Shown here one piece after another: positions 11,014-32,000 of a stretch of DNA of 32,000 bases. Source of the stretch: Candidatus Saccharimonadota bacterium (GTDB lineage: Bacteria > Patescibacteriota > Saccharimonadia > Saccharimonadales > UBA4665); the NCBI GenBank assembly GCA_016700375.1, contig CP065016.1, positions 420,001-452,000 of the forward strand, read 5' to 3'. A model generated the notes under the pieces. The model was not told where the DNA came from. It searched no databases and was given only the letters and a program-made list of their open reading frames with translations. The translations under genes and the position numbers were made by a program. Positions within the stretch are counted from its first letter, which is position 1. Each line of letters starts with the position of its first letter.

Positions 11014-11147
11014 GCCGGAAAGTATCGAGGCGACAGCCGAGCTTTAGGGGGAGGGGCGAGCAGACGAATTTAGTTCGGCTGCGAAGTAGAGGGGCAAGCC
11101 CCTCCTTAAAATGGACTCTGCTAGGGCTGAAAGGAGCATTCTAATGA
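11014..11147. repeat. family B element (inverted relative to the 31711 array) plus a 36-nt duplication of the gene junction
   Basis: 11030-11110 aligns to the reverse complement of the 113-bp unit at 31711 (CGAGGCGAyAGCCGAGCTTTAGGG ... CCTCCTT). The junction TGGAC.CT.CT.GGGCTGAAAGGAGCATTCTAATGA occurs twice, at 10978-11013 and 11112-11147. Confidence 0.7.
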
Positions 11148-11425
11148 AGCTATCACCCCAGCAATACCTCACAGAAGACCTTGCTCAAATACAACGCTAC
11201 TTCCCAGGAGCAAAACCAGTTGCACTCCGCACTCCCTTCGACCTGACACCGCCGCCAAAGCGAAAATTCCAAATCCCAAATGGCAAATTCCAAACAAATG
11301 CCAACGACCAAAACACAAAAGAGTCGCCCAAAAGCTCCTCGCGGAGTGATCCTGCTGCCATTTTTTTGTCTTATCTCATGACTCTTGACTCTGTGAGCCG
11401 GAGGCGAACCCGATGGATGGTGTAA
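11144..11425 (+). CDS. hypothetical protein whose C-terminal two-thirds is read through a family A repeat
   Basis: ATG at 11144 is preceded by AAAGGAG. 94 aa (MKLSPQQYLTEDLAQIQRYF...). Codons ~40-85 are the tandem heptamers AAATTCC/AAATCCC/AAATGGC plus the repeat core and right arm. It overlaps the next gene by 13 nt. Confidence 0.45.
   Translation: MKLSPQQYLTEDLAQIQRYFPGAKPVALRTPFDLTPPPKRKFQIPNGKFQTNANDQNTKESPKSSSRSDPAAIFLSYLMTLDSVSRRRTRWMV
11264..11397 (+). repeat. family A heptamer-armed element, copy inside ORF 11144-11425
   Basis: Tandem heptamers AAATTCC AAATCCC AAATGGC AAATTCC AAACAAA lie at 11264-11298. The core CAAAAGAGTCGCC resembles CAAAAAGTCGCC of the umuC copies. The right arm is TGTCTTATCTCATGACTCTTGACTCTG (11367-11393). 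Confidence 0.55.
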
Positions 11426-11766
11426 ATCTCCTTAGTAAAGCATCACTACAAACCGGCACCGCCGTAGCGACGCACAAAGGCTTTCCAAACCCAGCCGCCG
11501 AGCGCGGCCGCTCACTGCTTAGCCTGGACCGCTTACTGATACGTTCACCAAGCAGCACCTATTTTTTCCGTATACGCGGACACAACTGGCACCAGCTCGG
11601 CATATTTGACGGCGATATTGCCATTGTCGACCGAGCCCGCACACCAATCCCAGGTAAAATCGTCATCGCTGCAACAGATACGGGCGAGCTCGTTTTGAGC
11701 AAATGGGGTGAAATCCGTCTCGAAAATCTCTGGGGCGTCGTAACCGCCATAATTCATGAATTTTAA
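11413..11766 (+). CDS. umuD: UmuD-like S24-fold protein (LexA/UmuD C-terminal domain) lacking the Ser nucleophile
   Basis: 117 aa. GFPNPAAE...LDRLLIRSPSSTYFFRIRGHNW...GIFDGDIAIVDR...GKIVIAA...GELVLSKW aligns with UmuD GFPSPAADY...ATYFVKASGDSM...DGDLLIVD...GDIVIAA...GEFTVKKL. The GDSM motif is GHNW here. Confidence 0.8.
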   Translation: MDGVNLLSKASLQTGTAVATHKGFPNPAAERGRSLLSLDRLLIRSPSSTYFFRIRGHNWHQLGIFDGDIAIVDRARTPIPGKIVIAATDTGELVLSKWGEIRLENLWGVVTAIIHEF

Positions 11767-11771
11767 TGGAA

Positions 11772-11806
11772 AGAGGCAAGGAGTAAGAGATAAGAAGTAA
11801 GAGAAC
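11772..11806 (+). repeat. family A left-arm-type heptamer run (GGCAAGG AGTAAGA GATAAGA AGTAAGA GAACGGC)
   Basis: A purine-rich heptamer periodicity sits immediately after the umuD-like stop. It has the same TAAGAGA-type unit as the arms in umuC, but no matching right arm follows nearby. Confidence 0.45.
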
Positions 11807-11811
11807 GGCCA

Positions 11812-11999
11812 AAGGCCGCTTAACCAACAATCGCGCCAGCGATACAACTAAAGCCGGTCTTCGCGGAAGCTCACGGCGAAATCGTTGTAATACCAACTAA
11901 TCTTACAAAACCGAGGTCTGTCTGAGGAGCCTTAGGGCTGCCGTTGGCAGTCCTAAGGCGACGAGTTCCGCAGGTGATTGTTGGGCATTACAACGATTT
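11812..11999. repeat. family C intergenic structured repeat, copy 2
   Basis: 11812-11877 is ~80% identical to 9036-9100. A 20-bp long-range stem pairs GAAATCGTTGTAATACCAAC (11878-11897) with GTTGGGCATTACAACGATTTC (11979-11999). It encloses the hairpin CCTTAGGGCTGCC-gtt-GGCAGTCCTAAGG (11930-11958). Confidence 0.7.
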
Positions 12000-12105: not shown

Positions 12106-13626
12106 ATGTATGCACTTATAGATTCCAACAGTTTTTTCGTCAGCTGCGAACGCCTCTTCCGCCCAGACCTCGCAGACAAACCCGTCGTGGTACTTAGTAG
12201 TAACGACGGCTGCGCCATATCTCGCAGCAGCGAGGCCAAAGCTCTCGGTGTAAAAATGGGCGAACCCATCTTCAAGCTCCGCCAGAGATTTAGGGTTATC
12301 GACGGAAACCTAAAACGAGAGTTAAGAGATAAGAGGTATGAGATAAGATGGGAAGTTATGCCGCAAGGCGGCCCTCAAAAAGTCGCCTCCGGCGACACAT
12401 TTTCCACTCTTAACTCTTATCTCTTACATCATAATTCTGCTGAAAACGACCTCGTCGTTTTCTCTGCCAACTTCGAACTCTACGGCGACATATCTGAGCG
12501 CATTAGCACGCTCCTCACCAGCATTACACCGCATATAGAGCTCTACAGTATAGACGAAGCATTCCTTGACCTCAGCAAGCTCGACATAACCGACTATGAG
12601 ACCTGGGGCAAAGCAGTGCGTGCAAGTATTCTCAAAAACATTGGTATACCAGTGAGCGTTGGCATTGCCCCTACGAAAACCCTCTGCAAACTCGCCAACC
12701 ATTGGGCTAAAACTCACGAAAATACCAAAGGTGTTTTCGTGGTAGATATAAGAGATAAGAATCAAGAGTTAAGAAGAGAAGTTGTGCCGCAAAATGGCTC
12801 TCAAAAAGTCGCCTCCGGCGACACCGTTTCTAATCTTAACTCTTATCTCTTACTCCTTACCTCTACCTCCGTTGCCGACATCTGGGGCGTCGGCTGGCGG
12901 CTCGCACCCAAACTCAAAGCCGAGGGTATTTTCACCGCGCTTGGCCTCGCCCGCATGCGCCCCCAGCGCGCCCAACAGCTTATGGGTATTCATGGCCGCC
13001 ATATGGTGTATGAGCTAAACGGCACACGCTGCTTGCCGCTGCAAGCGCGCACCAAGCCGCAGCAGATGATTGCACGAGGGCGGCAATTTGGCAAAGATAC
13101 CAACGATTTCACCGTCGTGGAAGCTGCTGTGACGGCCCTGGCAAACCGTGCCACGCGTGAACTCCGCCGCGAAGGACAGCTCGCCACGCATGCCGCCGTG
13201 GTGCTGCGCACCAACCGACTCAAGCCAGGCTACACGACCACATTCGATAAAACCCGTTTTTACACCCCCACAGCCGACACAGGAGAGATTTGCAGCGCGC
13301 TTATCCGCACCCTAAGCCACAATTTTCAGCGTGGGCTCATGTACCACAAGGCAGATGTTATCCTGTACGACCTTACACCTGCCGCAAGCATCCAAACAGA
13401 TGTATTTGGCACGGTAGACCTCGCCCGCCACACCCGCTCACAAGCCCGTATGCAGGCCACCGATGCGCTCAATGCGAAACATGGCCCACACACCATTCGC
13501 TCGGCTGCCGAACTGCTCAGCAATGCCTGGCGCCCTCGCAGCAACATGCTCAGCCCCCGCTACACGAGTAGCTGGGATGAGCTACCTGCAGTAAAACTAC
13601 GCAGCAACCCTAGCACCAAGCCCTAA
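12106..13626 (+). CDS. umuC: Y-family translesion DNA polymerase (UmuC/DinB-like) carrying two in-frame repeat insertions
   Basis: MYALIDSNSFFVSCERLFRPDL...VVVLSSNDGC...SIDEAFLDL...IAPTKTLCKLANH...DIWGVG...MLSPRYTSSWDELP is collinear with E. coli UmuC. The start is set at ATG 12106. The ORF-track start at 11944 reads through the family C repeat. Confidence 0.9.
   Translation: MYALIDSNSFFVSCERLFRPDLADKPVVVLSSNDGCAISRSSEAKALGVKMGEPIFKLRQRFRVIDGNLKRELRDKRYEIRWEVMPQGGPQKVASGDTFSTLNSYLLHHNSAENDLVVFSANFELYGDISERISTLLTSITPHIELYSIDEAFLDLSKLDITDYETWGKAVRASILKNIGIPVSVGIAPTKTLCKLANHWAKTHENTKGVFVVDIRDKNQELRREVVPQNGSQKVASGDTVSNLNSYLLLLTSTSVADIWGVGWRLAPKLKAEGIFTALGLARMRPQRAQQLMGIHGRHMVYELNGTRCLPLQARTKPQQMIARGRQFGKDTNDFTVVEAAVTALANRATRELRREGQLATHAAVVLRTNRLKPGYTTTFDKTRFYTPTADTGEICSALIRTLSHNFQRGLMYHKADVILYDLTPAASIQTDVFGTVDLARHTRSQARMQATDALNAKHGPHTIRSAAELLSNAWRPRSNMLSPRYTSSWDELPAVKLRSNPSTKP
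12317..12437 (+). repeat. family A heptamer-armed hairpin element, in-frame copy 1 in umuC
   Basis: The left arm is TTAAGAG ATAAGAG GTATGAG ATAAGAT. The core holds the mini-hairpins GCCGCaagGCGGC and GTCGCCtccGGCGAC. The right arm is CTCTTAA CTCTTAT CTCTTAC. A perfect 13-bp inverted repeat pairs 12323-12335 with 12414-12426. Confidence 0.85.
12744..12870 (+). repeat. family A heptamer-armed hairpin element, in-frame copy 2 in umuC
   Basis: The core and right arm are ~85% identical to copy 1 (GAAGTTGTGCCGCAAAATGGCTCTCAAAAAGTCGCCTCCGGCGACACCGTTTCTAATCTTAACTCTTATCTCTTAC). The left arm is ATAAGAG ATAAGAA TCAAGAG TTAAGAA. Confidence 0.85.
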
Positions 13627-16291: not shown

Positions 16292-17722
16292 ATGCTGGCA
16301 AATACCTTGCTTTTTACAGGGAAAAAACAGATACTAATACGTAAGCAGTTTATGAACCAATATTTGATTCTCGGTGGTGGGGTTGTTGTCGTTATCTTGC
16401 TCGGTGCGCTGGGCTGGATACTGGCCATTAAACGCAAAGGAATTGGTGCGGCCGTCAGCGGAAAGTTGGCCAGCTCACTCAGGGATGAAAAGGCAAAATC
16501 AGATATCATTCTGGGCGCCATACAGGACGGCGTGGTGCTCATAGACGACCAACAGGTTATTCGACACTTCAACCAAGGCGCAACCAATATAACTGGCTGG
16601 TCGAAGCAAGAGGCTGAAGGACTCGACTGGCATCTTGTATTCAAATTTACAAATGCAAAGGGTGAAACAGCCCCAGCCGAACAAACCCCTCTCGCCAAAG
16701 CGTTTACCAGCGGTGAAGCAGTGCGAGACAACACAATCAGTCTTAGTACAAAGGCTGCCACCACCGTTGCTGCTACATTCAGCGTGGCACCCCTAGTCGA
16801 TACCGCAAAACATACAACTGGGCTAGTGGCTGTATTCCGTGACGTCAGCGAGGAGCGAGCAGAAGAAAACCAACGAGCAGAGTTTATTAGCACCGCTAGC
16901 CACGAAATGCGCACGCCGGTGGCGGCTATTGAAGGCTATTTGAGCCTCGCGCTGAACGAAAAAGTTGCCACCATAGACAACCGGGCCCGCGACTACCTCG
17001 AAAAAGCTCATAGCAGCACCAAACACCTGGGCCAGCTGTTTCAAGACCTTCTCACGAGTGCCAAGGCCGAAGATGGCCGACTTACCAATCACCCGAAAGT
17101 GGTAGAAATGGGCGCATTCCTCGAACAACTTGCTCAAGACCTTCGGTTCTCCGCCGAGAAAAAAGGCCTCTTTATGGAGTTCTTGTTTGGCAATTCAGAA
17201 ATAAAAGATGCCAGCGGAGGCGGTGGTGGCGAAGCGCGAGACATGAATAAAGTAATACGGCCGCTGTACTACGCCCAGGTTGACCCAGACCGCATGCGCG
17301 AGGTCATAACCAACATTTTTGACAACGGCTGCAAATATACAGAGGAGGGCAAGGTTAGCCTTGGACTTACCGGTAACGATGGAGTTGTGCAAATCTACGT
17401 TCGTGATACAGGTGCAGGCATACCGCCAGAAGACATTGCACACTTGTTCCAGAAATTTTACCGTGTTGATAACAGCGCCACCCGTACTATAGGTGGCACT
17501 GGTCTTGGTTTGTTCATTTGCCGAAAAATTGTAGAGCTGTATCAGGGAAGAATATGGGTTGAAAGCGAACTTGGCAAGGGCAGTACATTTTACATTAATA
17601 TACCGCGTCTAACCTCGAAAAAAGCAGAAGAACTTATGGCAGCTGAGGCGTCAAATCCACTTAGCACTACCACTGTCACACCATCAGCCCCTTCACCAGT
17701 ATCGACATCGGCGCCAGCATGA
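16292..17722 (+). CDS. PAS-domain sensor histidine kinase
   Basis: TM helix (YLILGGGVVVVILLGALGWILAI), a PAS-like segment, an H-box (ASHEMRTPVAAIEGY), an N-box (DNGCKYT), G1 (RDTGAGI) and G2 (GGTGLGLFICRKIV). The likely true start is ATG 16352 (MNQYLIL...). Confidence 0.92.
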   Translation: MLANTLLFTGKKQILIRKQFMNQYLILGGGVVVVILLGALGWILAIKRKGIGAAVSGKLASSLRDEKAKSDIILGAIQDGVVLIDDQQVIRHFNQGATNITGWSKQEAEGLDWHLVFKFTNAKGETAPAEQTPLAKAFTSGEAVRDNTISLSTKAATTVAATFSVAPLVDTAKHTTGLVAVFRDVSEERAEENQRAEFISTASHEMRTPVAAIEGYLSLALNEKVATIDNRARDYLEKAHSSTKHLGQLFQDLLTSAKAEDGRLTNHPKVVEMGAFLEQLAQDLRFSAEKKGLFMEFLFGNSEIKDASGGGGGEARDMNKVIRPLYYAQVDPDRMREVITNIFDNGCKYTEEGKVSLGLTGNDGVVQIYVRDTGAGIPPEDIAHLFQKFYRVDNSATRTIGGTGLGLFICRKIVELYQGRIWVESELGKGSTFYINIPRLTSKKAEELMAAEASNPLSTTTVTPSAPSPVSTSAPA

Positions 17723-19376: not shown

Positions 19377-20159
19377 ATGCGCCTCAACAAATATATTGCT
19401 TCCGCCTCGCTACTAAGCCGACGAGCGGCCGACCAAGCCATTGCCGACAGACGCGTTACCCTAAATGGCCAGATAACCGAAGCCGGCTCCCAGGTGAAAC
19501 CAACAGATACGGTTTGCCTCGACGGGGTGAAATTGACGCCTTGCATGCAGCACACAACCATTATGCTCAATAAGCCAGTCGGATATGTTTGTTCGCGGAG
19601 CGGCCAGGGAAGCAAAACTATTTTTGAACTCCTGCCCGAAGCATACCAGCATTTGCAGCCAGTCGGACGGCTCGACAAAGATTCGTCTGGGCTATTGCTA
19701 CTAACCGACGACGGCGACCTTGCAAACCAGCTCACCCACCCTAGCCGCGGCAAGGTCAAAGTATATGAAGTCACTCTCAACAAGCCCCTCCAGCCACTCC
19801 ACCAGCAAATGATATCTGACTACGGCATCACCCTCAAAGACGGTTTGAGCCGATTCACGGTCACGAAACTAGAGACAAGAGACATGAGATATGAGTCAAG
19901 AAAGGAAAACATATCACGCAGCAATTATTCAAAAGTCGGTTCCAGCGATGTATCATCCACTCATGACTCAGTACTCATGACTCATGACTCTCATACGTAC
20001 GAAGTACGCATGCAAGAAGGCCGCAACCGCCAAATCCGCCGCACGTTCGCCGCCCTCGGCTACACTGTTACCACCCTCCACCGAACCCACTTTGGCTCAT
20101 ATAATCTTGGCAATGCACTGCCAAAAGATATCGTCATCATACACTCGACGGACATGTGA
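19377..20159 (+). CDS. RsuA/RluB-family rRNA pseudouridine synthase (S4 domain plus catalytic domain) with an in-frame repeat insertion
   Basis: MRLNKYIASASLLSRRAADQAI (S4), the catalytic GRLDKDSSGLLLLTDDG motif, and EGRNRQIRRTFAALG. The start is set at ATG 19377; the ORF-track start 19308 adds 23 non-conserved residues. Confidence 0.88.
   Translation: MRLNKYIASASLLSRRAADQAIADRRVTLNGQITEAGSQVKPTDTVCLDGVKLTPCMQHTTIMLNKPVGYVCSRSGQGSKTIFELLPEAYQHLQPVGRLDKDSSGLLLLTDDGDLANQLTHPSRGKVKVYEVTLNKPLQPLHQQMISDYGITLKDGLSRFTVTKLETRDMRYESRKENISRSNYSKVGSSDVSSTHDSVLMTHDSHTYEVRMQEGRNRQIRRTFAALGYTVTTLHRTHFGSYNLGNALPKDIVIIHSTDM
19868..19996 (+). repeat. family A heptamer-armed hairpin element, in-frame copy in the pseudouridine synthase gene
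   Basis: The left arm is GAGACAA GAGACAT GAGATAT GAGTCAA. The core TTCAAAAGTCGGTTCCAGCGATG is homologous to CTCAAAAAGTCGCCTCCGGCGAC. The right arm is ACTCATG ACTCAGT ACTCATG ACTCATG ACTCTCA. Confidence 0.8.
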
Positions 20160-20508: not shown

Positions 20509-21702
20509 CTAGGGATTCTTGGTAAAACTCGTCAGACTTATTGGCGTAGTGGCAAGAGCATTATCGTCGCCAACACCAGCCATACCACCACCCATCGGAC
20601 TTGTCGGTAGTTTGATTACCTGACCACTACGAATAATGTCTGGGTTATCGATGTTATTTGCCTTTGCAATCTCCCTATAATCAAGACCACGGCGTTGTGC
20701 TATTTCACTTAATGTATCACCCTTCACTACAACGTAATCCTGTACTCCGTCTGAGCCAGCCGTGCCTGGAGCGGCGCCACCGAGAGAGTTCGGCAATTTG
20801 ATAGCTTGGTCTGGAAAGATTAAATCTGGATTCTGAATATTATTCAATCTTACTAGCTCCTCTACGGTCGTACCATGCCGTAGCGCAATCTTGCTTAGAG
20901 TGTCACCAGGTCTGACAGTTTCCACACGACCAACATCACCTGGAGTGGGCGAGTCGTCAGAACTGGGCTTGGAGCCACCACCGGGGTTAGAGGTTATAGC
21001 ATCACCTAATTCAACATGCGAGTCAATGCCATGCTGTGCGGCTGCCGCTTGACTTGCAAGCTTACGATCTTCGCGGCTGTTGTTAAGGTCGTTCTGGGCA
21101 ATGCTTGCTTGGTTCGCAAGCTTACGATCTTCAATCGAATTGTATTGAGAATTGGTTTGAGCCTGCTGGGCAGCCTGTGCGGCTGCCGCTTGACTTGCAA
21201 GCTTACGATCTTCGCGGCTGTTGTTAAGGTCGTTCTGAGCAATGCTTGCTTGGTTCGCAAGCTTACGATCTTCAATCGAATTGTATTGAGTGTTAAGCTG
21301 CGCGGCAGCAGCGGCTTCCTCAGCTTGCTTAGCTGCAAAAGCTCTCTCTTGTTGACGCTGTTTAGCGGCTGCGGCCTGTGCAGCTGCGGCCTGTGCAGCA
21401 GCGGCTTCCTCAGCTTGCTTAGCTGCAAAAGCTCTCTCTTGTTGACGCTGTCTCGCCACTGCAGCCTGTGCAGCCTGTGCAGCTGCGGCCTCTGCGGCTG
21501 CGGCCTGTGCGGCAGCGGCTTGCTTAGCTGCAAAAGCTCTCTCTTGTTGACGCTGTTTAGCGGCTGCGGCCTGTGCAGCTGCGGCCTGTGCAGCAGCGGC
21601 TTGGTTTTTCAATCGATTCTCTTCAACATCATTAGAGTAGCTATATGAGCTGCTACTACCGCCATCATCCGCTGCTCGCACCATACCTCTCGCCTCCTTC
21701 AT
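20509..21702 (-). CDS. LysM-domain protein with an Ala/Gln-rich repetitive N-terminal region
   Basis: Two C-terminal LysM motifs (GDTLSKIALRHGTTVEELVRLNNIQNPDLIFPDQAIKLP and GDTLSEIAQRRGLDYREIAKANNIDNPDIIRSGQVIKLP). The probable true start is M7 at 21684, preceded by AAGGAGG. Confidence 0.85.
   Translation of the reverse strand: MKEARGMVRAADDGGSSSSYSYSNDVEENRLKNQAAAAQAAAAQAAAAKQRQQERAFAAKQAAAAQAAAAEAAAAQAAQAAVARQRQQERAFAAKQAEEAAAAQAAAAQAAAAKQRQQERAFAAKQAEEAAAAAQLNTQYNSIEDRKLANQASIAQNDLNNSREDRKLASQAAAAQAAQQAQTNSQYNSIEDRKLANQASIAQNDLNNSREDRKLASQAAAAQHGIDSHVELGDAITSNPGGGSKPSSDDSPTPGDVGRVETVRPGDTLSKIALRHGTTVEELVRLNNIQNPDLIFPDQAIKLPNSLGGAAPGTAGSDGVQDYVVVKGDTLSEIAQRRGLDYREIAKANNIDNPDIIRSGQVIKLPTSPMGGGMAGVGDDNALATTPISLTSFTKNP
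21041..21600. repeat. intragenic tandem repeats in the LysM gene (141-bp unit x2; ~90-105-bp AAAQAAAAKQRQQERAFAAKQ unit x3)
   Basis: GCTGCCGCTTGACTTGCAAGCTTACGATCTTCGCGG... recurs at 21041 and 21182. GCTTAGCTGCAAAAGCTCTCTCTTGTTGACGCTG recurs three times between 21325 and 21555. Confidence 0.8.
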
Positions 21703-21798: not shown

Positions 21799-22706
21799 AA
21801 CCTGAATCACGAAACTCCCTAAAGTAAATCGCGCCTCTGTTACTCTTGTAGTGGTAAAACAAACAGGAGAAAACAAATGCGCGAATTACAAAAACAGCAT
21901 ATCGTAGACGTGTACGTTTGGGTAGATGACACACTCCAACAAACCGCAGTCGGGAAAACTGGCAGGCCACCGGTACTGCGCGACAGTGAACTCATTACCA
22001 TCCTCATCTGGGATGGTTTGACTGAAAGCCACCGACCACTCAAAGACCTATACAAATGGATTGAACGAGACTACCCAGACTACTTTCCGAAGCTTCCAAA
22101 GTACCAGAACTTTGTTGCGCAAGCGCACCGCAACCTAGAACAACTCGTCTACCTGCTACAACTGACATTACAGATCTCGTCGGAGGTGCGTTTCGCGGAT
22201 TCTACTATGCTGCCCGTCTGTAAGCTCATTCGGGCCGAGCGACACAAGGTAGCCAAAGCTGTTGCTGCTTTCGGTAAGAACTGGCAGGGCTACCATTATG
22301 GTTTTAAGTTACACGCGAGTGTTGATCATCTCAACCGGCTCTGTGCGGTGGTGTTTACGCCAGCAGACCAGCACGACAATCAGGCCGAGGAACAACTTGC
22401 AAATGAACACACCAGGATACTCGTTGGCGACAGCCACTACGGTGGTAGCGTACAGCGTAGGCGGCTCTGGGAACAGTACAAAACTATTGTTGTTGCACCG
22501 CCCCATTACAAGCAACGAAAACAAGTCATGGCCAGCTGGCAACATCTGTTATTGACGCTCAGGCCAAAGATTGAAGCTGTCTTTGACTACCTCAAAGAGC
22601 ACAAGCACCTCGTCACCTCATTCCCGAGAAGTGTGCAGGGGTACTTTGTCCATTATCTACGAGTCTTACTTGGCTACCAGATGAGGGTAGTTTCGTGATT
22701 CAGGTT
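21799..22706 (+). mobile_element. IS982-family insertion sequence (~908 bp)
   Basis: 18-bp perfect terminal inverted repeats: AACCTGAATCACGAAACT at 21799-21816 and AGTTTCGTGATTCAGGTT at 22689-22706. They enclose a single transposase ORF. Confidence 0.85.
21877..22698 (+). CDS. IS982-family DDE transposase
   Basis: 273 aa. VWVDDTL, SDSELITILI, ADSTMLPVCKLIRAERHK, YGFKLHA, TPADQHDN, LVGDSHYGG and KIEAVFDYLK parallel the conserved IS982 transposase blocks. Confidence 0.85.
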   Translation: MRELQKQHIVDVYVWVDDTLQQTAVGKTGRPPVLRDSELITILIWDGLTESHRPLKDLYKWIERDYPDYFPKLPKYQNFVAQAHRNLEQLVYLLQLTLQISSEVRFADSTMLPVCKLIRAERHKVAKAVAAFGKNWQGYHYGFKLHASVDHLNRLCAVVFTPADQHDNQAEEQLANEHTRILVGDSHYGGSVQRRRLWEQYKTIVVAPPHYKQRKQVMASWQHLLLTLRPKIEAVFDYLKEHKHLVTSFPRSVQGYFVHYLRVLLGYQMRVVS

Positions 22707-22728
22707 ATTAATAAACGGGGCTGTTTTG

Positions 22729-26154: not shown

Positions 26155-26595
26155 ATGAGCTTCACCACCGAAGAAAAACAGGAGCTTCTCGCCCTCATTA
26201 TAGAAGGTGTCGAAACTGTCACTGGGCCTCGTTTTGAAGCATTGGAAGCCGATGTCGCAGAGCTTAAGTCCGATGTCGCAGAGCTTAAGTCCGATGTCGC
26301 AGAGCTTAAGTCCGATGTCGCAGAGCTTAAGTCCGATATGCGGAGCGTCAAATCAGAACTGACCGATATCAACCATCGACTTACCAGTCTAGAGTTATCA
26401 TTCCAAAACTTCGACGAGCGGTTGCAGGCTCTCGAAAATGACGTCAAAGAAATATACAAAATATTGGCCGCCAAACCAATTTCGGCCTTCGGCAGCCGCG
26501 CATATGCCAAACTTTCCAATAGCCAAAAACTCCTCGAGCTTCACAAAGAAGTCCGTCACCTCGCTTCCGTAGAAGGCGTTACGCTGCCGTCCTAA
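26155..26595 (+). CDS. hypothetical coiled-coil protein with a (DVAELKS)x4 heptad array
   Basis: 146 aa with heptad periodicity throughout (EALEA DVAELKS x4 DMRSVKS ELTDINH...). No other motif. Confidence 0.65.
   Translation: MSFTTEEKQELLALIIEGVETVTGPRFEALEADVAELKSDVAELKSDVAELKSDVAELKSDMRSVKSELTDINHRLTSLELSFQNFDERLQALENDVKEIYKILAAKPISAFGSRAYAKLSNSQKLLELHKEVRHLASVEGVTLPS
26251..26334 (+). repeat. perfect 21-bp tandem repeat x4 (GATGTCGCAGAGCTTAAGTCC), in-frame
   Basis: Four identical head-to-tail units at 26251, 26272, 26293 and 26314. A diverged fifth unit follows. Confidence 0.95.
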
Positions 26596-27337: not shown

Positions 27338-28753
27338 ATGAGTACAAAACTACCAATCGTTGCCATAGTGGGGCGGGCAAATGTGGGCAAAAGCTCGCTG
27401 TTTAACGCCATCCTCGACCGCCGCGAAGCCATTGTGGCGCACGAGGCTGGCACCACGCGCGACAGCATTACCGCCAAGGCTGAGTGGCAGGGGCAAAACT
27501 TCTGGCTCGTTGACACCGCGGGCATGAAAGACGCAGCCGACGACTTTGAGTTCACCATCCAGGAACAAATAATCCAGGCGGCCGATAGCGCCGACATAAT
27601 ATGGGTGGTGGTAGAGGCAAACATACCCATTAGCGAAGAAGACCGCCGAGTCGCCAAACTCGCGCTCAAGAGTAAAAAGCCCGTTTTTCTCATAATAAAC
27701 AAGGTTGACCGCGCCCGCGGGCACGACCTTGAGGGCTTTGAGCGCCTGGGCATTAAGCCAATTTTCCCAACCAGCGCCACCCAAAAACGCGGCATAGATG
27801 ACCTGCTCGACACCCTCGTCAGCCATATTCCAAAGGCTACGCTGGCCGATAACGACGACTGTCTCCGTATAGCACTGCTCGGTAGACCAAATGTGGGGAA
27901 GTCGCAATTGTTTAACACCCTCGCTAAAAAACAGCAGGCCATTGTTGCCGACCGGGCGGGCACCACGCGGGATATCAACCGCGCCACCGTGCGCTACAGC
28001 GGGCAGGAGATTGAACTCATGGACACGGCGGGTATTCGCCGCCCGGGCAAAATCGGTGTCGGTATAGAGCATTTTAGCGTCGTCCGCAGCCTCAGTGCCA
28101 TTGAACAAGCCGACGTATGCTTGCTACTTATAGACGTAAACGAAATTGGCACCGCCCTCGACCAAAAAATTGCCGGCATGATAAAAGAAGCCGGCAAAGG
28201 GCTTATAATCGTCGTGTCAAAATGGGATAGCGTGGAGGGGAAAGATGCCTTCACGCGCGACGCCCTTGCCCCGCAAATTACTCACACGTTTGACTTCGTT
28301 GCGTGGGCACCGCTCATTTTTACCAGCAGCGTTACCGGCCAGAATGTCACCAAAATATTCGACCTCGCGCTCGACATTGCCAACGCCCGAAAAACCCGTA
28401 TTTCTACCCGCGTGCTCAATAGCTGGCTTGGCGGCGTTATTGCCAAACACCCTCCCGCCGGTCTCAAGAACCGCGCCCCCAAACTGAACTACATGGTACA
28501 GGAAGATGACAACCCCATCCCGGCCTTCAAAATCTTTGGGGCACACACCAAGTTCCTCCACTGGAGCTACAAGCGTTTCATGGAACGCGAACTTCGCGCC
28601 CAGTTCCATTTTGAGGGCACCGCGGTGCAACTATGGTTTATAGAAAAAGACGGCCGCCACAAACACGGCAACAGCCCCACCAAGCCAGAACGCTCAGAGA
28701 CACAACGGAAGATTGTGAAGAATAAAACACGCAGCAAACGAAAGGAATCGTGA
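27338..28753 (+). CDS. der: ribosome-associated GTPase Der (EngA), tandem GTPase domains plus KH-like domain
   Basis: Two G domains (GRANVGKSSLFN...DTAG...NKVD and GRPNVGKSQLFN...DTAG...SKWD) and a C-terminal KH-like region with a basic tail. Confidence 0.97.
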   Translation: MSTKLPIVAIVGRANVGKSSLFNAILDRREAIVAHEAGTTRDSITAKAEWQGQNFWLVDTAGMKDAADDFEFTIQEQIIQAADSADIIWVVVEANIPISEEDRRVAKLALKSKKPVFLIINKVDRARGHDLEGFERLGIKPIFPTSATQKRGIDDLLDTLVSHIPKATLADNDDCLRIALLGRPNVGKSQLFNTLAKKQQAIVADRAGTTRDINRATVRYSGQEIELMDTAGIRRPGKIGVGIEHFSVVRSLSAIEQADVCLLLIDVNEIGTALDQKIAGMIKEAGKGLIIVVSKWDSVEGKDAFTRDALAPQITHTFDFVAWAPLIFTSSVTGQNVTKIFDLALDIANARKTRISTRVLNSWLGGVIAKHPPAGLKNRAPKLNYMVQEDDNPIPAFKIFGAHTKFLHWSYKRFMERELRAQFHFEGTAVQLWFIEKDGRHKHGNSPTKPERSETQRKIVKNKTRSKRKES

Positions 28754-28831
28754 ATCATGAATCATGAATCATGTAGAAAAATAGTGGGGTATTTTCCATT
28801 CTTAATTCATAATTCATCTTTCATCATTCAG
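28745..28831 (+). repeat. family A heptamer-armed element, short intergenic copy overlapping the der stop codon
   Basis: The left arm is TGAATCA x3 (perfect). The junction ATTTTCCATTCTTAATTC matches ATTTTCCACTCTTAACTC of the umuC copy. The right arm is ATTCTTA ATTCATA ATTCATC TTTCATC. The first TGA (28751-28753) is the der stop. Confidence 0.7.
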
Positions 28832-30848: not shown

Positions 30849-31712
30849 ATGAAAGTAAATAAAGTTACATTAAAGGATAATGCTTATCCTACAGTTCTAA
30901 AGGACATAGCGTCACCGCCAAAAGAACTATTCTACCTGGGGGCAGAGCCAGATGCTTGGCTGAGTCGGCCTCGTGTTGCCGTAGTCGGTAGCCGTGGAGT
31001 AACACCATACGGACGTACCGTGACCGAACAGCTTGTGGGGCAACTTGCAGAGCGGGGCATTACTATTGTGAGCGGCTTAGCACTGGGCGTTGACGCCATC
31101 GCTCACGAGGCAGCCTTGAGGCACGGTGGCCTACACATAGCTGTGCTCGCAAATGGACTCGACGAAATATACCCGGCCAGCAACACCAATCTCGCACGTC
31201 GTCTCCTGGAGCAGGGCGGTGCGATTATTTCAGAATATCCGGTGGGCACACCGAGCCTAAAGCAGCATTTTATTGCACGTAACCGGATTGTTGCCGGTCT
31301 GAGTAATGCGCTCCTAATCATCGAGGCAACCGACAAGAGCGGGACCCTACACACCGCACGTTTTGCGCTCGAGCAAGGGCGAGATGTGCTTGTTGTGCCG
31401 GGTAATATTACCAGCCCGAACAGCGTGGGGTGCAATCAGCTAATAAAATCAGGAGCAACTCCTGTCACCTCTGTTGATGACATCCTGTTTGCGCTAGGGA
31501 CAAAAAACCTCACCACAACCTCGTATGTACACAAGGGTGACACTGCCGACGAGCAGGCAATCCTTGACCTCCTCTATAACGGTGTCAGCGACGCGCATGA
31601 CCTCCTTGAGCAATCAAAGTTGAACCCAGCGCTTTTCACCCAAACACTCACCATGCTCGAACTCTCCGGCAAAATCCACCCACTCGGCGCAAACCACTGG
31701 GCGCCAAGTTAA
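30849..31712 (+). CDS. dprA: DNA-processing protein DprA (Smf)
   Basis: 287 aa. VAVVGSRGVTPYG, SGLALGVDAIAHEAAL, ARNRIVAGLS and GTLHTARFALEQGRDVLVVPG are canonical DprA Rossmann-fold blocks. Confidence 0.93.
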   Translation: MKVNKVTLKDNAYPTVLKDIASPPKELFYLGAEPDAWLSRPRVAVVGSRGVTPYGRTVTEQLVGQLAERGITIVSGLALGVDAIAHEAALRHGGLHIAVLANGLDEIYPASNTNLARRLLEQGGAIISEYPVGTPSLKQHFIARNRIVAGLSNALLIIEATDKSGTLHTARFALEQGRDVLVVPGNITSPNSVGCNQLIKSGATPVTSVDDILFALGTKNLTTTSYVHKGDTADEQAILDLLYNGVSDAHDLLEQSKLNPALFTQTLTMLELSGKIHPLGANHWAPS

Positions 31713-32000
31713 GGAGGACCTTGTCCTCCTCGCTGGTTCGGAATGAATCCGAACTCAGCTCTCCTCCTGCCCTAAAGCTCGGCTATCGCCTCGTTCGTGT
31801 GGGGTTATCAGGAAGCTTGTCTTAAGGAGGACCTTGTCCTCCTCGCTGGTTCGGAATGAATCCGAACTCAGCTCTCCTCCTGCCCTAAAGCTCGGCTATC
31901 GCCTCGTTCGTGTGGGGTTATCAGGAAGCTTGTCTTAAGGAGGACCTTGTCCTCCTCGCTGGTTCGGAATGAATCCGAACTCAGCTCTCCTCCTGCCCTA
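31709..32000 (+). repeat. family B: head-to-tail tandem array of a 113-bp unit (2.6 copies visible, runs off the window)
   Basis: AAGGAGGACCTTGTCCTCCTCGCTGGTTCGGAATGAATCCGAAC... starts at 31711, 31824 and 31937 (period 113) and the copies are apparently identical. The dprA stop TAA (31710-31712) overlaps the first unit. Confidence 0.95.

Follow-up and report, generated by a model that had tools for sequence, protein, structure and literature searches.

We analyzed a 32,000-nucleotide stretch of a Candidatus Saccharimonadota genome (contig CP065016.1, positions 420,001 to 452,000; hereafter the window), in which a gene for an RsuA/RluB-type rRNA pseudouridine synthase (here rsuA) carries an in-frame palindromic insert of ~129 nt. 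This insert probably belongs to a clade-specific family of selfish coding palindromes that form hairpins, resemble the Rickettsia palindromic elements (RPEs), and have arms built from heptamer arrays. In the mechanism we propose, a copy may have entered a β-hairpin turn of the RsuA/RluB protein in the ancestor of the clade, where it would persist because the site tolerates an insert. The ribosome would read through the element in the family's sole stop-free frame, producing a loop of ~40 residues that is predicted to be disordered. The arm heptamers may then change in concert on both arms, and copies may be deleted, leaving mini-palindromes, or recombine with each other.

A palindromic insert in the rsuA reading frame

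The element was recognized by sequence reading, a repeat search, folding, and the family profile. It occupies 19868-19996 on the forward strand, and our re-reading of this segment agreed with the coordinates and heptamers given in the original prediction, which had been made from the DNA sequence alone. It is an imperfect palindrome that encodes ~40 aa and has a 53-nt core with five heptamers on its left and five complementary ones on its right. The left arm (19871-19905) is a tandem array of AGAGACA (19871), AGAGACA (19878), TGAGATA (19885), TGAGTCA (19892), and AGAAAGG (19899). The right arm (19959-19993), which complements it, comprises ACTCATG (19959), ACTCAGT (19966), ACTCATG (19973), ACTCATG (19980), and ACTCTCA (19987). 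Tandem Repeats Finder detected period-7 arrays at 19871-19901 and 19959-19990, and an inverted-repeat search gave arm complementarities of 84% (19 nt) and 71% (45 nt). The mutual complementarity that had been proposed for the arms is therefore kept, but imperfectly, with 27 of 36 positions paired. The element strand folds at -35 kcal/mol, compared with -21.6 ± 2.8 kcal/mol for shuffled sequences (z = -4.8), and none of 200 shuffles was as stable. The core (19906-19958, including CAAAAGTCGGTTCCAGCGATG at 19930-19950) was identified by alignment to the cores in umuC, der, and other rsuA genes as a decayed form of the family core, which consists of hairpin 1, an A-run, and hairpin 2. The copy aligns to the family over its full length. 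Little is left of its two core hairpins, and its core shares 54% identity with that of umuC copy 1.

The host gene (19377-20159, forward strand) encodes a protein of 260 aa with S4 and PseudoU_synth_2 domains (Pfam; PF00849 at 1.7e-22 and PF01479 at 4.7e-09) that is 100% identical to an NCBI protein named "rRNA pseudouridine synthase" from a Candidatus Saccharibacteria bacterium. Its earlier labeling as an essential-type enzyme was not borne out; RsuA and RluB are dispensable in Escherichia coli. Across the insert, the translation runs from FTVTKLE through TRDMRYESRKENISRSNYSKVGSSDVSSTHDSVLMTHDS to HTYEVRMQEGRNRQIRR. The top sequence matches in the PDB were RluF, RsuA, and RluB, and the alignments to these proteins span residues 1 to ~155 and ~200-248, breaking exactly at the insert. 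An AlphaFold model made with 37 orthologs had a mean predicted local distance difference test (pLDDT) score of 85. Scores fell below 50 at residues 169-201 and were mostly above 85 elsewhere. Because strands 161-164 and 207-212 flank this low-scoring stretch, the insert is placed at the tip of a β-hairpin, replacing the turn with a loop that is predicted to be disordered. The ortholog alignment, the breaks in the PDB alignments, and the model agree in putting the insert in a predicted surface loop, a position predicted to be compatible with the fold of the host protein. The segment is missing from orthologs of ~220 aa. In 75 of 77 other Saccharibacteria species representatives, a set without the window's own genome, 14-24 residues separate the DGxSxF and EGRNRQ motifs, compared with 53 in the window.

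The original prediction had allowed that the host might be a pseudogene. Between the window and the related contig L001 (related contigs and loci are given by L numbers and proteins by P numbers), the ratio of nonsynonymous to synonymous change (pN/pS) in host codons was 0.18 upstream of the insert (pS 0.51) and 0.16 downstream (pS 0.27), which rules out a pseudogene. Within the insert, all five differences from L001 were nonsynonymous, and pN was approximately equal to pS across deeper ortholog pairs; these substitutions indicate that the insert peptide is essentially unconstrained, with little or no selection at the protein level. The part of the gene downstream of the insert includes the motif EGRNRQIRR and is in frame with the insert. 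Since purifying selection acts on these in-frame downstream codons, the ribosome probably traverses the insert, which would be translated and read through.

A repeat family with one open frame and covarying arms

The original prediction had grouped the rsuA segment with copies in umuC, and both alignments and nhmmer place it in the same family; against a profile built from the family, the rsuA copy scores E = 5e-29. Both umuC copies lie on the forward strand and were recognized by fold, profile, and frame: site 1 at 12316-12430 (in frame, RELRDKRYEIRWEVMPQGGPQKVASGDTFSTLNSYLLH; fold z = -5.4) and site 2 at 12741-12870 (in frame; fold z = -7.2). A 23-nt core stretch, CTCAAAAAGTCGCCTCCGGCGAC, is identical in the two, with 0 matches expected by chance. 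Within one clade, the rsuA segment is lineage-wide at its site, and its nucleotide homology to the umuC copies distinguishes it from a conserved protein insertion of independent origin.

A full unit measures ~125 nt and consists of a left arm of four to five heptamers (WWGAGWY), a two-hairpin core, and a complementary right arm. The 5′ half of the consensus reads (C)TAGAG, four to five heptamers of AAGAGWY or ATGAGWY, GGAAG, and hairpin 1 (GCCGC-NNN-GCGGC). The 3′ half reads ATAAAAA, hairpin 2 (GTCGCC-NNN-GGCGAC or GTCCGGC-NNNN-GCCGGAC), ACAWTTTCC, and four to five complementary heptamers, such that an A-run separates the two G+C core hairpins.

The 32-kb window holds three full copies plus remnants. 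A profile search of the relatives' syntenic contigs, covering ~135 kb of the clade, yielded 10 further copies in about five to seven related genomes, which occupy four genic sites (rsuA, two in umuC, and der) and one intergenic site. The profile detected rsuA copies in L001, L004, L005, L006, and L007, and ortholog alignment revealed the rsuA insert in L208, L209, and L210, whose contigs lay outside the profile searches. Both umuC sites carry a family copy in L005, and der (assigned by Pfam) carries one in L005 and L007. The intergenic copy, at L004 15555-15690 between der and pth, is a full copy annotated as a 51-aa hypothetical protein (P0121), and its left arm (AGAGTCA) mismatches its right arm (ATTCCCA/ATTCATA). 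At the orthologous spot in the window, 28744-28826 (forward strand), there is a core-less heptamer palindrome of four GAATCAT units followed by four to five ATTCATA-type units. A weak partial match to the family profile lies upstream of umuD (11340-11392, reverse strand; nhmmer E = 0.005).

Other heptamer arrays occur nearby. The small open reading frame (ORF) at 11111-11425 contains AAATTCC-type units and right-arm-type units (TCTTATC/TCATGAC/TCTTGAC) at 11255-11405, and a solo AAGAGAT-type array with a CGGCCAAAGGCCG hairpin directly follows umuD (11765-11850). In topA of L001 (16819-16856), four perfect AGAGTCA heptamers are in frame; a short core-like stretch follows them and a right arm is absent, which makes this either a solo arm or a truncated copy.

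Rfam scans at gathering and E-value thresholds gave no intron or other family, only a tRNA and sub-threshold miRNA-like hairpin matches. A profile of the insert peptide, run against 5.8 billion proteins with 20 word-index candidates scored, matched only the 51-aa ORF. HMMER with the insert peptide gave eight matches among 1.84 billion representative proteins. Three of the seven new ones were inspected: P0124 and P0125 are umuC variants with the element, and P0127 is a small host protein. A strict detector of paired heptamer arrays, run over 1.3 Mb of sequence that represents 80 other Saccharibacteria species, found none; the family is thus clade-specific within the phylum.

All 12 intragenic copies are read in one element frame, with LESRDKSQETRGEATPRSGSKNVASGDKKSTHDSYLMTHDS as the typical peptide, so the frame first noticed as common to the rsuA and umuC copies extends to the whole set. 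The three sense frames of these copies contain 0, 29, and 37 stops, and on the antisense strand no frame of any copy is free of stops. In the intergenic L004 copy, too, the frame used by the genic copies is open; the open frame is therefore a property of the family. As had been noted for the window, every intragenic copy has the same orientation as its host gene. An antisense insertion would truncate the protein, and probably also the transcript, which would account for this orientation. The two window umuC copies, which were those covered by a scan for terminator-like sequences, have hairpin 2 followed by TTTTT on the antisense strand (12396-12382 and 12822-12808), an arrangement that looks like an intrinsic terminator.

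Within rsuA, phased on the ATG at 19377, the in-frame arm triplets are AGA (19878), AGA (19899), GTA (19971), and CAT (19992), and TGA occurs at 19885, 19892, 19964, 19978, and 19985, always out of frame. The original prediction had listed these triplets as stop avoidance. The triplets and the 0/29/37 distribution of stops bear out the pattern, but it is better read as survivorship. Each successive heptamer is displaced by one base relative to the reading frame, and any stop-bearing variant comes into frame every third unit; the 21-nt pattern of stops is the residue of purifying selection on the host ORF, with in-frame-stop variants purged.

Family copies fold with z-scores of -4.1 to -7.5 on both strands. 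We tested covariation over a structure of 37 pairs (arms plus the two hairpins) in 13 copies. Standard pairs filled 89.3% of the cells, compared with 32-44% when partners were slid by one to three columns. Eleven pairs had changed on both sides, and none of 500 shuffles reached the observed covariation score. Arm columns 17/116 and 31/102 alternate between C-G and U-A, and hairpin-2 column 72/83 is G-C in seven copies and C-G in five. At umuC site 1, the arms are AGAGTTA/AGAGATA with TAACTCT/TATCTCT in the window and AGAGTCA/AGAGACA with GACTCTT/GACTCGT in L005. Individual copies pair at 16-29 of 30-36 positions. The suggestion that the arms differ in heptamer and that pairing, rather than sequence, is kept thus holds across the family.

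Turnover of copies and competing explanations

At least nine genomes carry the insertion at the same codon position of rsuA, with host proteins that share 62-89% identity with that of the window; the insertion is an old one, and the copy in the window has decayed. In L003 and L008 (66% identical), only AAGACAAGACTCAAAAAACATGAGTCATAGACAT is left, a GACTCA..TGAGTC mini-palindrome that looks like the product of a near-complete deletion of the element. Core sequences do not track the orthology of the sites. Within one genome, cores are 85-87% identical (85% for the two umuC copies of the window; 87% for the der and rsuA copies of L005), compared with 49-53% between orthologous sites (53% for umuC copy 1 in the window and L005; 52% for rsuA in L005 and the window). 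The L004 intergenic core and the second umuC core of L005, which differ in both genome and site, are 80% identical. Both umuC sites are filled in the window and in L005, with genome-specific cores. Pairwise core divergence is either 0-4%, within the trio of the window, L001, and L208, or 37-72%, which looks like replacement, not gradual drift. Because cores are nearer to copies in the same genome than to the orthologous copy, we infer that they would have been overwritten by same-genome copies through gene conversion or re-insertion, which would also keep the arms paired without a host-level function. Copies may also recombine with one another: in the metagenomic umuC protein P0124 (360 aa), the ~140 codons between the element copies are gone, and one hybrid copy is left. 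This looks like a deletion by recombination between two direct copies, which would remove part of the catalytic region of the polymerase.

Several observations weigh against the reading of these palindromes as selfish elements. Arm complementarity is retained at orthologous, vertically inherited sites, and the trio insert has 0-3 synonymous changes in ~28 sites, compared with a host pS of 0.31-0.47; such low synonymous change would not be expected of pure junk DNA. No transposase or other mobilizing enzyme could be linked to the element, no target-site duplication could be defined from der or umuC comparisons, no insertion event was seen, and the family offered no clean pair of filled and empty sites; empty orthologs differ from filled ones by more than the element. 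Movement of the element is inferred from the distribution of copies and the similarity of their cores. With four independent genic sites in the ~135 kb of the clade, the copy-number and orientation statistics are thin, and both translation and loop disorder are predictions from sequence and model.

The ~100 nt downstream of the insert is equally similar in the trio, and rsuA is a recombination mosaic; on these grounds, we make no claim that the insert is more conserved than its host at the nucleotide level. The mosaic involves the window, L001, and L208. The window and L208 are nearly identical over ~19577-19860, where the window diverges from L001, and all three are alike over 19850-20076.

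The retained pairing would suit a structured nucleic-acid element that benefits the host, with the long hairpin, in mRNA or DNA, selected for control of expression. It could act as an RNase or decay determinant, as a signal for replication or recombination, or as a translational pause that helps the two half-domains to fold, and the peptide would be a by-product. Compensatory changes keep the arms paired at orthologous sites. In many pairs, the arms have diverged less than the synonymous sites of the host (0.11 per nucleotide for the left arm and 0.15 for the right between the window and L004, compared with a host pS of 0.64), and the synonymous changes in the closest trio are few. The hosts, a DNA-damage polymerase and ribosome-biogenesis factors, also make regulation plausible. 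We nevertheless consider this explanation unlikely. Most Saccharibacteria have no element at the rsuA site, one lineage has almost deleted its copy, and both hairpins in the core of the window copy have largely disappeared. The copies are spread over unrelated genes and intergenic DNA, their pairing is incomplete, the low divergence coincides with the recombination mosaic, and gene conversion accounts for the retained pairing without a host function. Growth of the palindromes in place, with arrays lengthened by replication slippage and the inverted arm made by intrastrand template switching at permissive loops, and with cores spread by gene conversion and no transposition, seems to us quite unlikely. 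It would explain why heptamer number and sequence vary among copies and orthologs, why arms change in concert, and why there are a solo in-frame array in L001 topA and a core-less palindrome at 28744-28826. It would likewise fit an empty Prevotella glnN allele that has CTCTTCACCCTC at the spot of the right-arm (CACTCTT)n and a third allele with other heptamers, as well as loops that have been struck repeatedly by different inserts. Yet a two-hairpin core of ~50 nt common to four genic sites and intergenic DNA needs a copy-and-insert step, conversion needs prior homology at the recipient site, and the same arm heptamer occurs in dozens of unrelated Prevotella genes.

Two further explanations concern the protein. 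A lineage-specific loop selected for its amino acids, with only an incidental likeness to umuC, could point to the same position in all close orthologs and to recognizable motifs (ESRDMRHE...THDSxLMTHDS), but these motifs are merely translated heptamers. The exclusively nonsynonymous differences from L001, the equality of pN and pS in deeper pairs, the presence of the same nucleotide family in umuC, der, and intergenic DNA, the predicted disorder, and the lack of the loop in most of the phylum largely refute this explanation, which we regard as very improbable. Removal or skipping of the element before the protein is made, whether as an intron-like or RNase-processed segment, by translational bypass, or as an intein, is scarcely credible. 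A strong hairpin in coding sequence invites the idea, and bypass has a precedent in the byps of yeast (Magnusiomyces) mitochondria, as recounted in PMC6649704. However, a skipped element would have no reason to keep one frame free of stops in 12 of 12 copies, against 66 stops in the other frames; ~40 aa is far too small for an intein, and Rfam gave no intron match.

Related palindromes and neighboring features

The selfish coding palindrome that we favor has its closest described counterpart in RPEs, which are, in the account given by PMC10969869 (Ogata et al. 2000, 2002), in-frame, hairpin-forming inserts that encode a family-specific peptide, are tolerated in enzymes, and have no known transposase. 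As so described, they share with our family a length of ~100-150 nt, hairpin structure, in-frame placement in unrelated housekeeping genes, a single open frame, inserts judged compatible with the protein fold, a host-dependent organism with a reduced genome, and the lack of a known transposase. Our family belongs to this RPE-like class in being dispersed, palindromic, and in frame in unrelated genes, at a site predicted to be compatible with the fold. The likeness is one of description, and the hosts differ: RPEs come from Alphaproteobacteria, and our elements come from Saccharibacteria, of the candidate phyla radiation (CPR). With another phylum and another architecture, sequence similarity to the consensus sequences of RPE-1 to RPE-10 would not be expected. 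Unlike RPEs, our elements have tandem-heptamer arms with a unit sequence that varies between copies and covaries between arms, as well as a core with two small G+C hairpins. Their cores also appear homogenized within genomes, whereas RPEs are described in PMC6649704 as losing repeat identity over time and decaying in place. [quoted passage not shown] We found no prior description of such elements in Saccharibacteria in the open-access literature.

ORF-carrying intragenic MITEs, such as ERIC and Coxiella QMITE1 (PMC10969869), are similarly small and non-autonomous, with terminal inverted repeats and in-frame fusions, and our elements fall within MITE-type size and ends (arms of 30-35 nt, elements of 115-135 nt). 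No target-site duplication could be defined for them, the window holds no parent insertion sequence (IS) with matching ends, and their inverted repeats are heptamer arrays instead of a fixed transposase-binding end. The Correia element of Neisseria is another such bacterial MITE. The nearest structural parallel would be the small dispersed repeats (SDRs) of Nostoc, which Elhai et al. in 2008 reportedly described as hairpin modules with compensatory changes inside tandem heptameric repeats. Their insertions are said to be modular or nested, mostly intergenic, and cyanobacterial, with unconventional mobility suspected. Our elements likewise hold hairpin modules (two, of 13-18 nt) between heptamer arrays, but here the arrays are inverted, form a ~35-bp stem, and are translated as a whole unit in conserved genes.

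Repetitive extragenic palindromes (REPs), their REPIN pairs, and the associated RAYT proteins (PMC3116915, PMC3733652) offer a further comparison. REPs are also short, dispersed, G+C-rich hairpins whose pairs form larger mobile units and whose families evolve within genomes. However, they are extragenic and have GTAG or CGTC heads, neither of which occurs in our family alignment, and REPINs are inverted REP pairs, whereas our two core hairpins are in tandem within an intragenic unit. The coding palindromes of Nematomorpha mitochondria (PMC6649704) resemble our elements as long inverted repeats in translated sequence that are dynamic across species, with both arms translated. They differ in being perfect, reaching 142 bp per arm, and lying in conserved parts of proteins, and they do not form a dispersed family with a shared core.

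Stable hairpins within translated sequence are rare, and the occurrence of such elements in an ultra-small, epibiotic member of the CPR, and apparently also in Prevotella, shows that they are not a peculiarity of Rickettsia. The heptamer arms, the covariation, and the genome-specific cores may help to explain how such elements are maintained, whether by selection, conversion, or templated repair. Such inserts also inflate and split core-gene alignments, give rise to spurious hypothetical proteins, the 51-aa P0121 among them, and can drive deletions, as in the 360-aa umuC.

A metagenome scan for inverted AAGAG-type heptamer arrays 60-90 nt apart returned at least 120 stretches (L088-L207), many of them flanking variable cores. 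Among the matches listed, in-frame cases lie in metH, a type III glutamine synthetase (glnN), purL (twice), argS, an outer-membrane efflux protein, and a UvrD-like helicase, and AAGAGTG/AAGAGTT arrays occur in L096 (1662-1753), L103, L173, L174 (627-721 and 1923-2017), L181, and L190. The insert peptides resemble SEELRVKSEES...NSSLFTLHSSL. The host contigs of the listed matches range from 43% to 68% G+C, and L107, also among them, has a two-hairpin core much like that of the Saccharibacteria family. The glnN host is Prevotella, in which orthologs 92-93% identical to each other comprise an empty form of 754 aa, a filled form of 776 aa, and a form of 768 aa filled with different heptamers. Comparison of these glnN alleles showed no obvious target-site duplication. 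It is possible, although we hold this tentatively and with some doubt, that heptamer-armed coding palindromes form a widespread and unrecognized class of elements, present in Saccharibacteria, rumen Prevotella, and other contigs of 43-68% G+C, that propagate and maintain themselves by an unconventional mechanism instead of a classical transposase. If so, candidate mechanisms would be heptamer-homology-guided insertion, gene conversion combined with hairpin-templated repair, or a hairpin-specific enzyme. The palindromes would then reshape the same surface loops in core enzymes time and again, and would be a general source of diversity in protein loops.

Another family of inserts, likewise in frame but unrelated to the first, contains several G+C-rich hairpins and encodes a peptide like ETRAQRG..ER.ASEGVE.TLERSDESTSRGASPS. 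It occurs in topA of L001 (17167-17355), in der of L004 (14092-14301), and, in other lineages, in the same rsuA loop (orthologs P0016, P0031, P0034, and others). In L005, der has a second insertion (16869-17087), a near-perfect palindrome of 219 nt (minimum free energy, -113 kcal/mol) that is translated in frame and that relatives lack.

Downstream of rsuA, the window has a LysM gene and an IS, and the syntenic L001 has a DUF3800 gene. The IS (21800-22710) encodes a DDE_Tnp_1_3 transposase (21877-22698). It is the only IS in the window and was rejected as a parent of the element, as its 18-bp terminal inverted repeats (AACCTGAATCACGAAACT) are unrelated. Long repeats within the LysM-domain gene (20509-21702, reverse strand), measuring 141, 105, and 90 bp, encode AAAQAAAAKQRQQERAFAAKQ-type units. 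Perfect tandem repeats lie at 26249-26337 (21 bp, 4.2 units) and at 31709-32000 (113 bp, 2.6 units, continuing past the end of the window); the 100% identity of their units suggests recent expansion.

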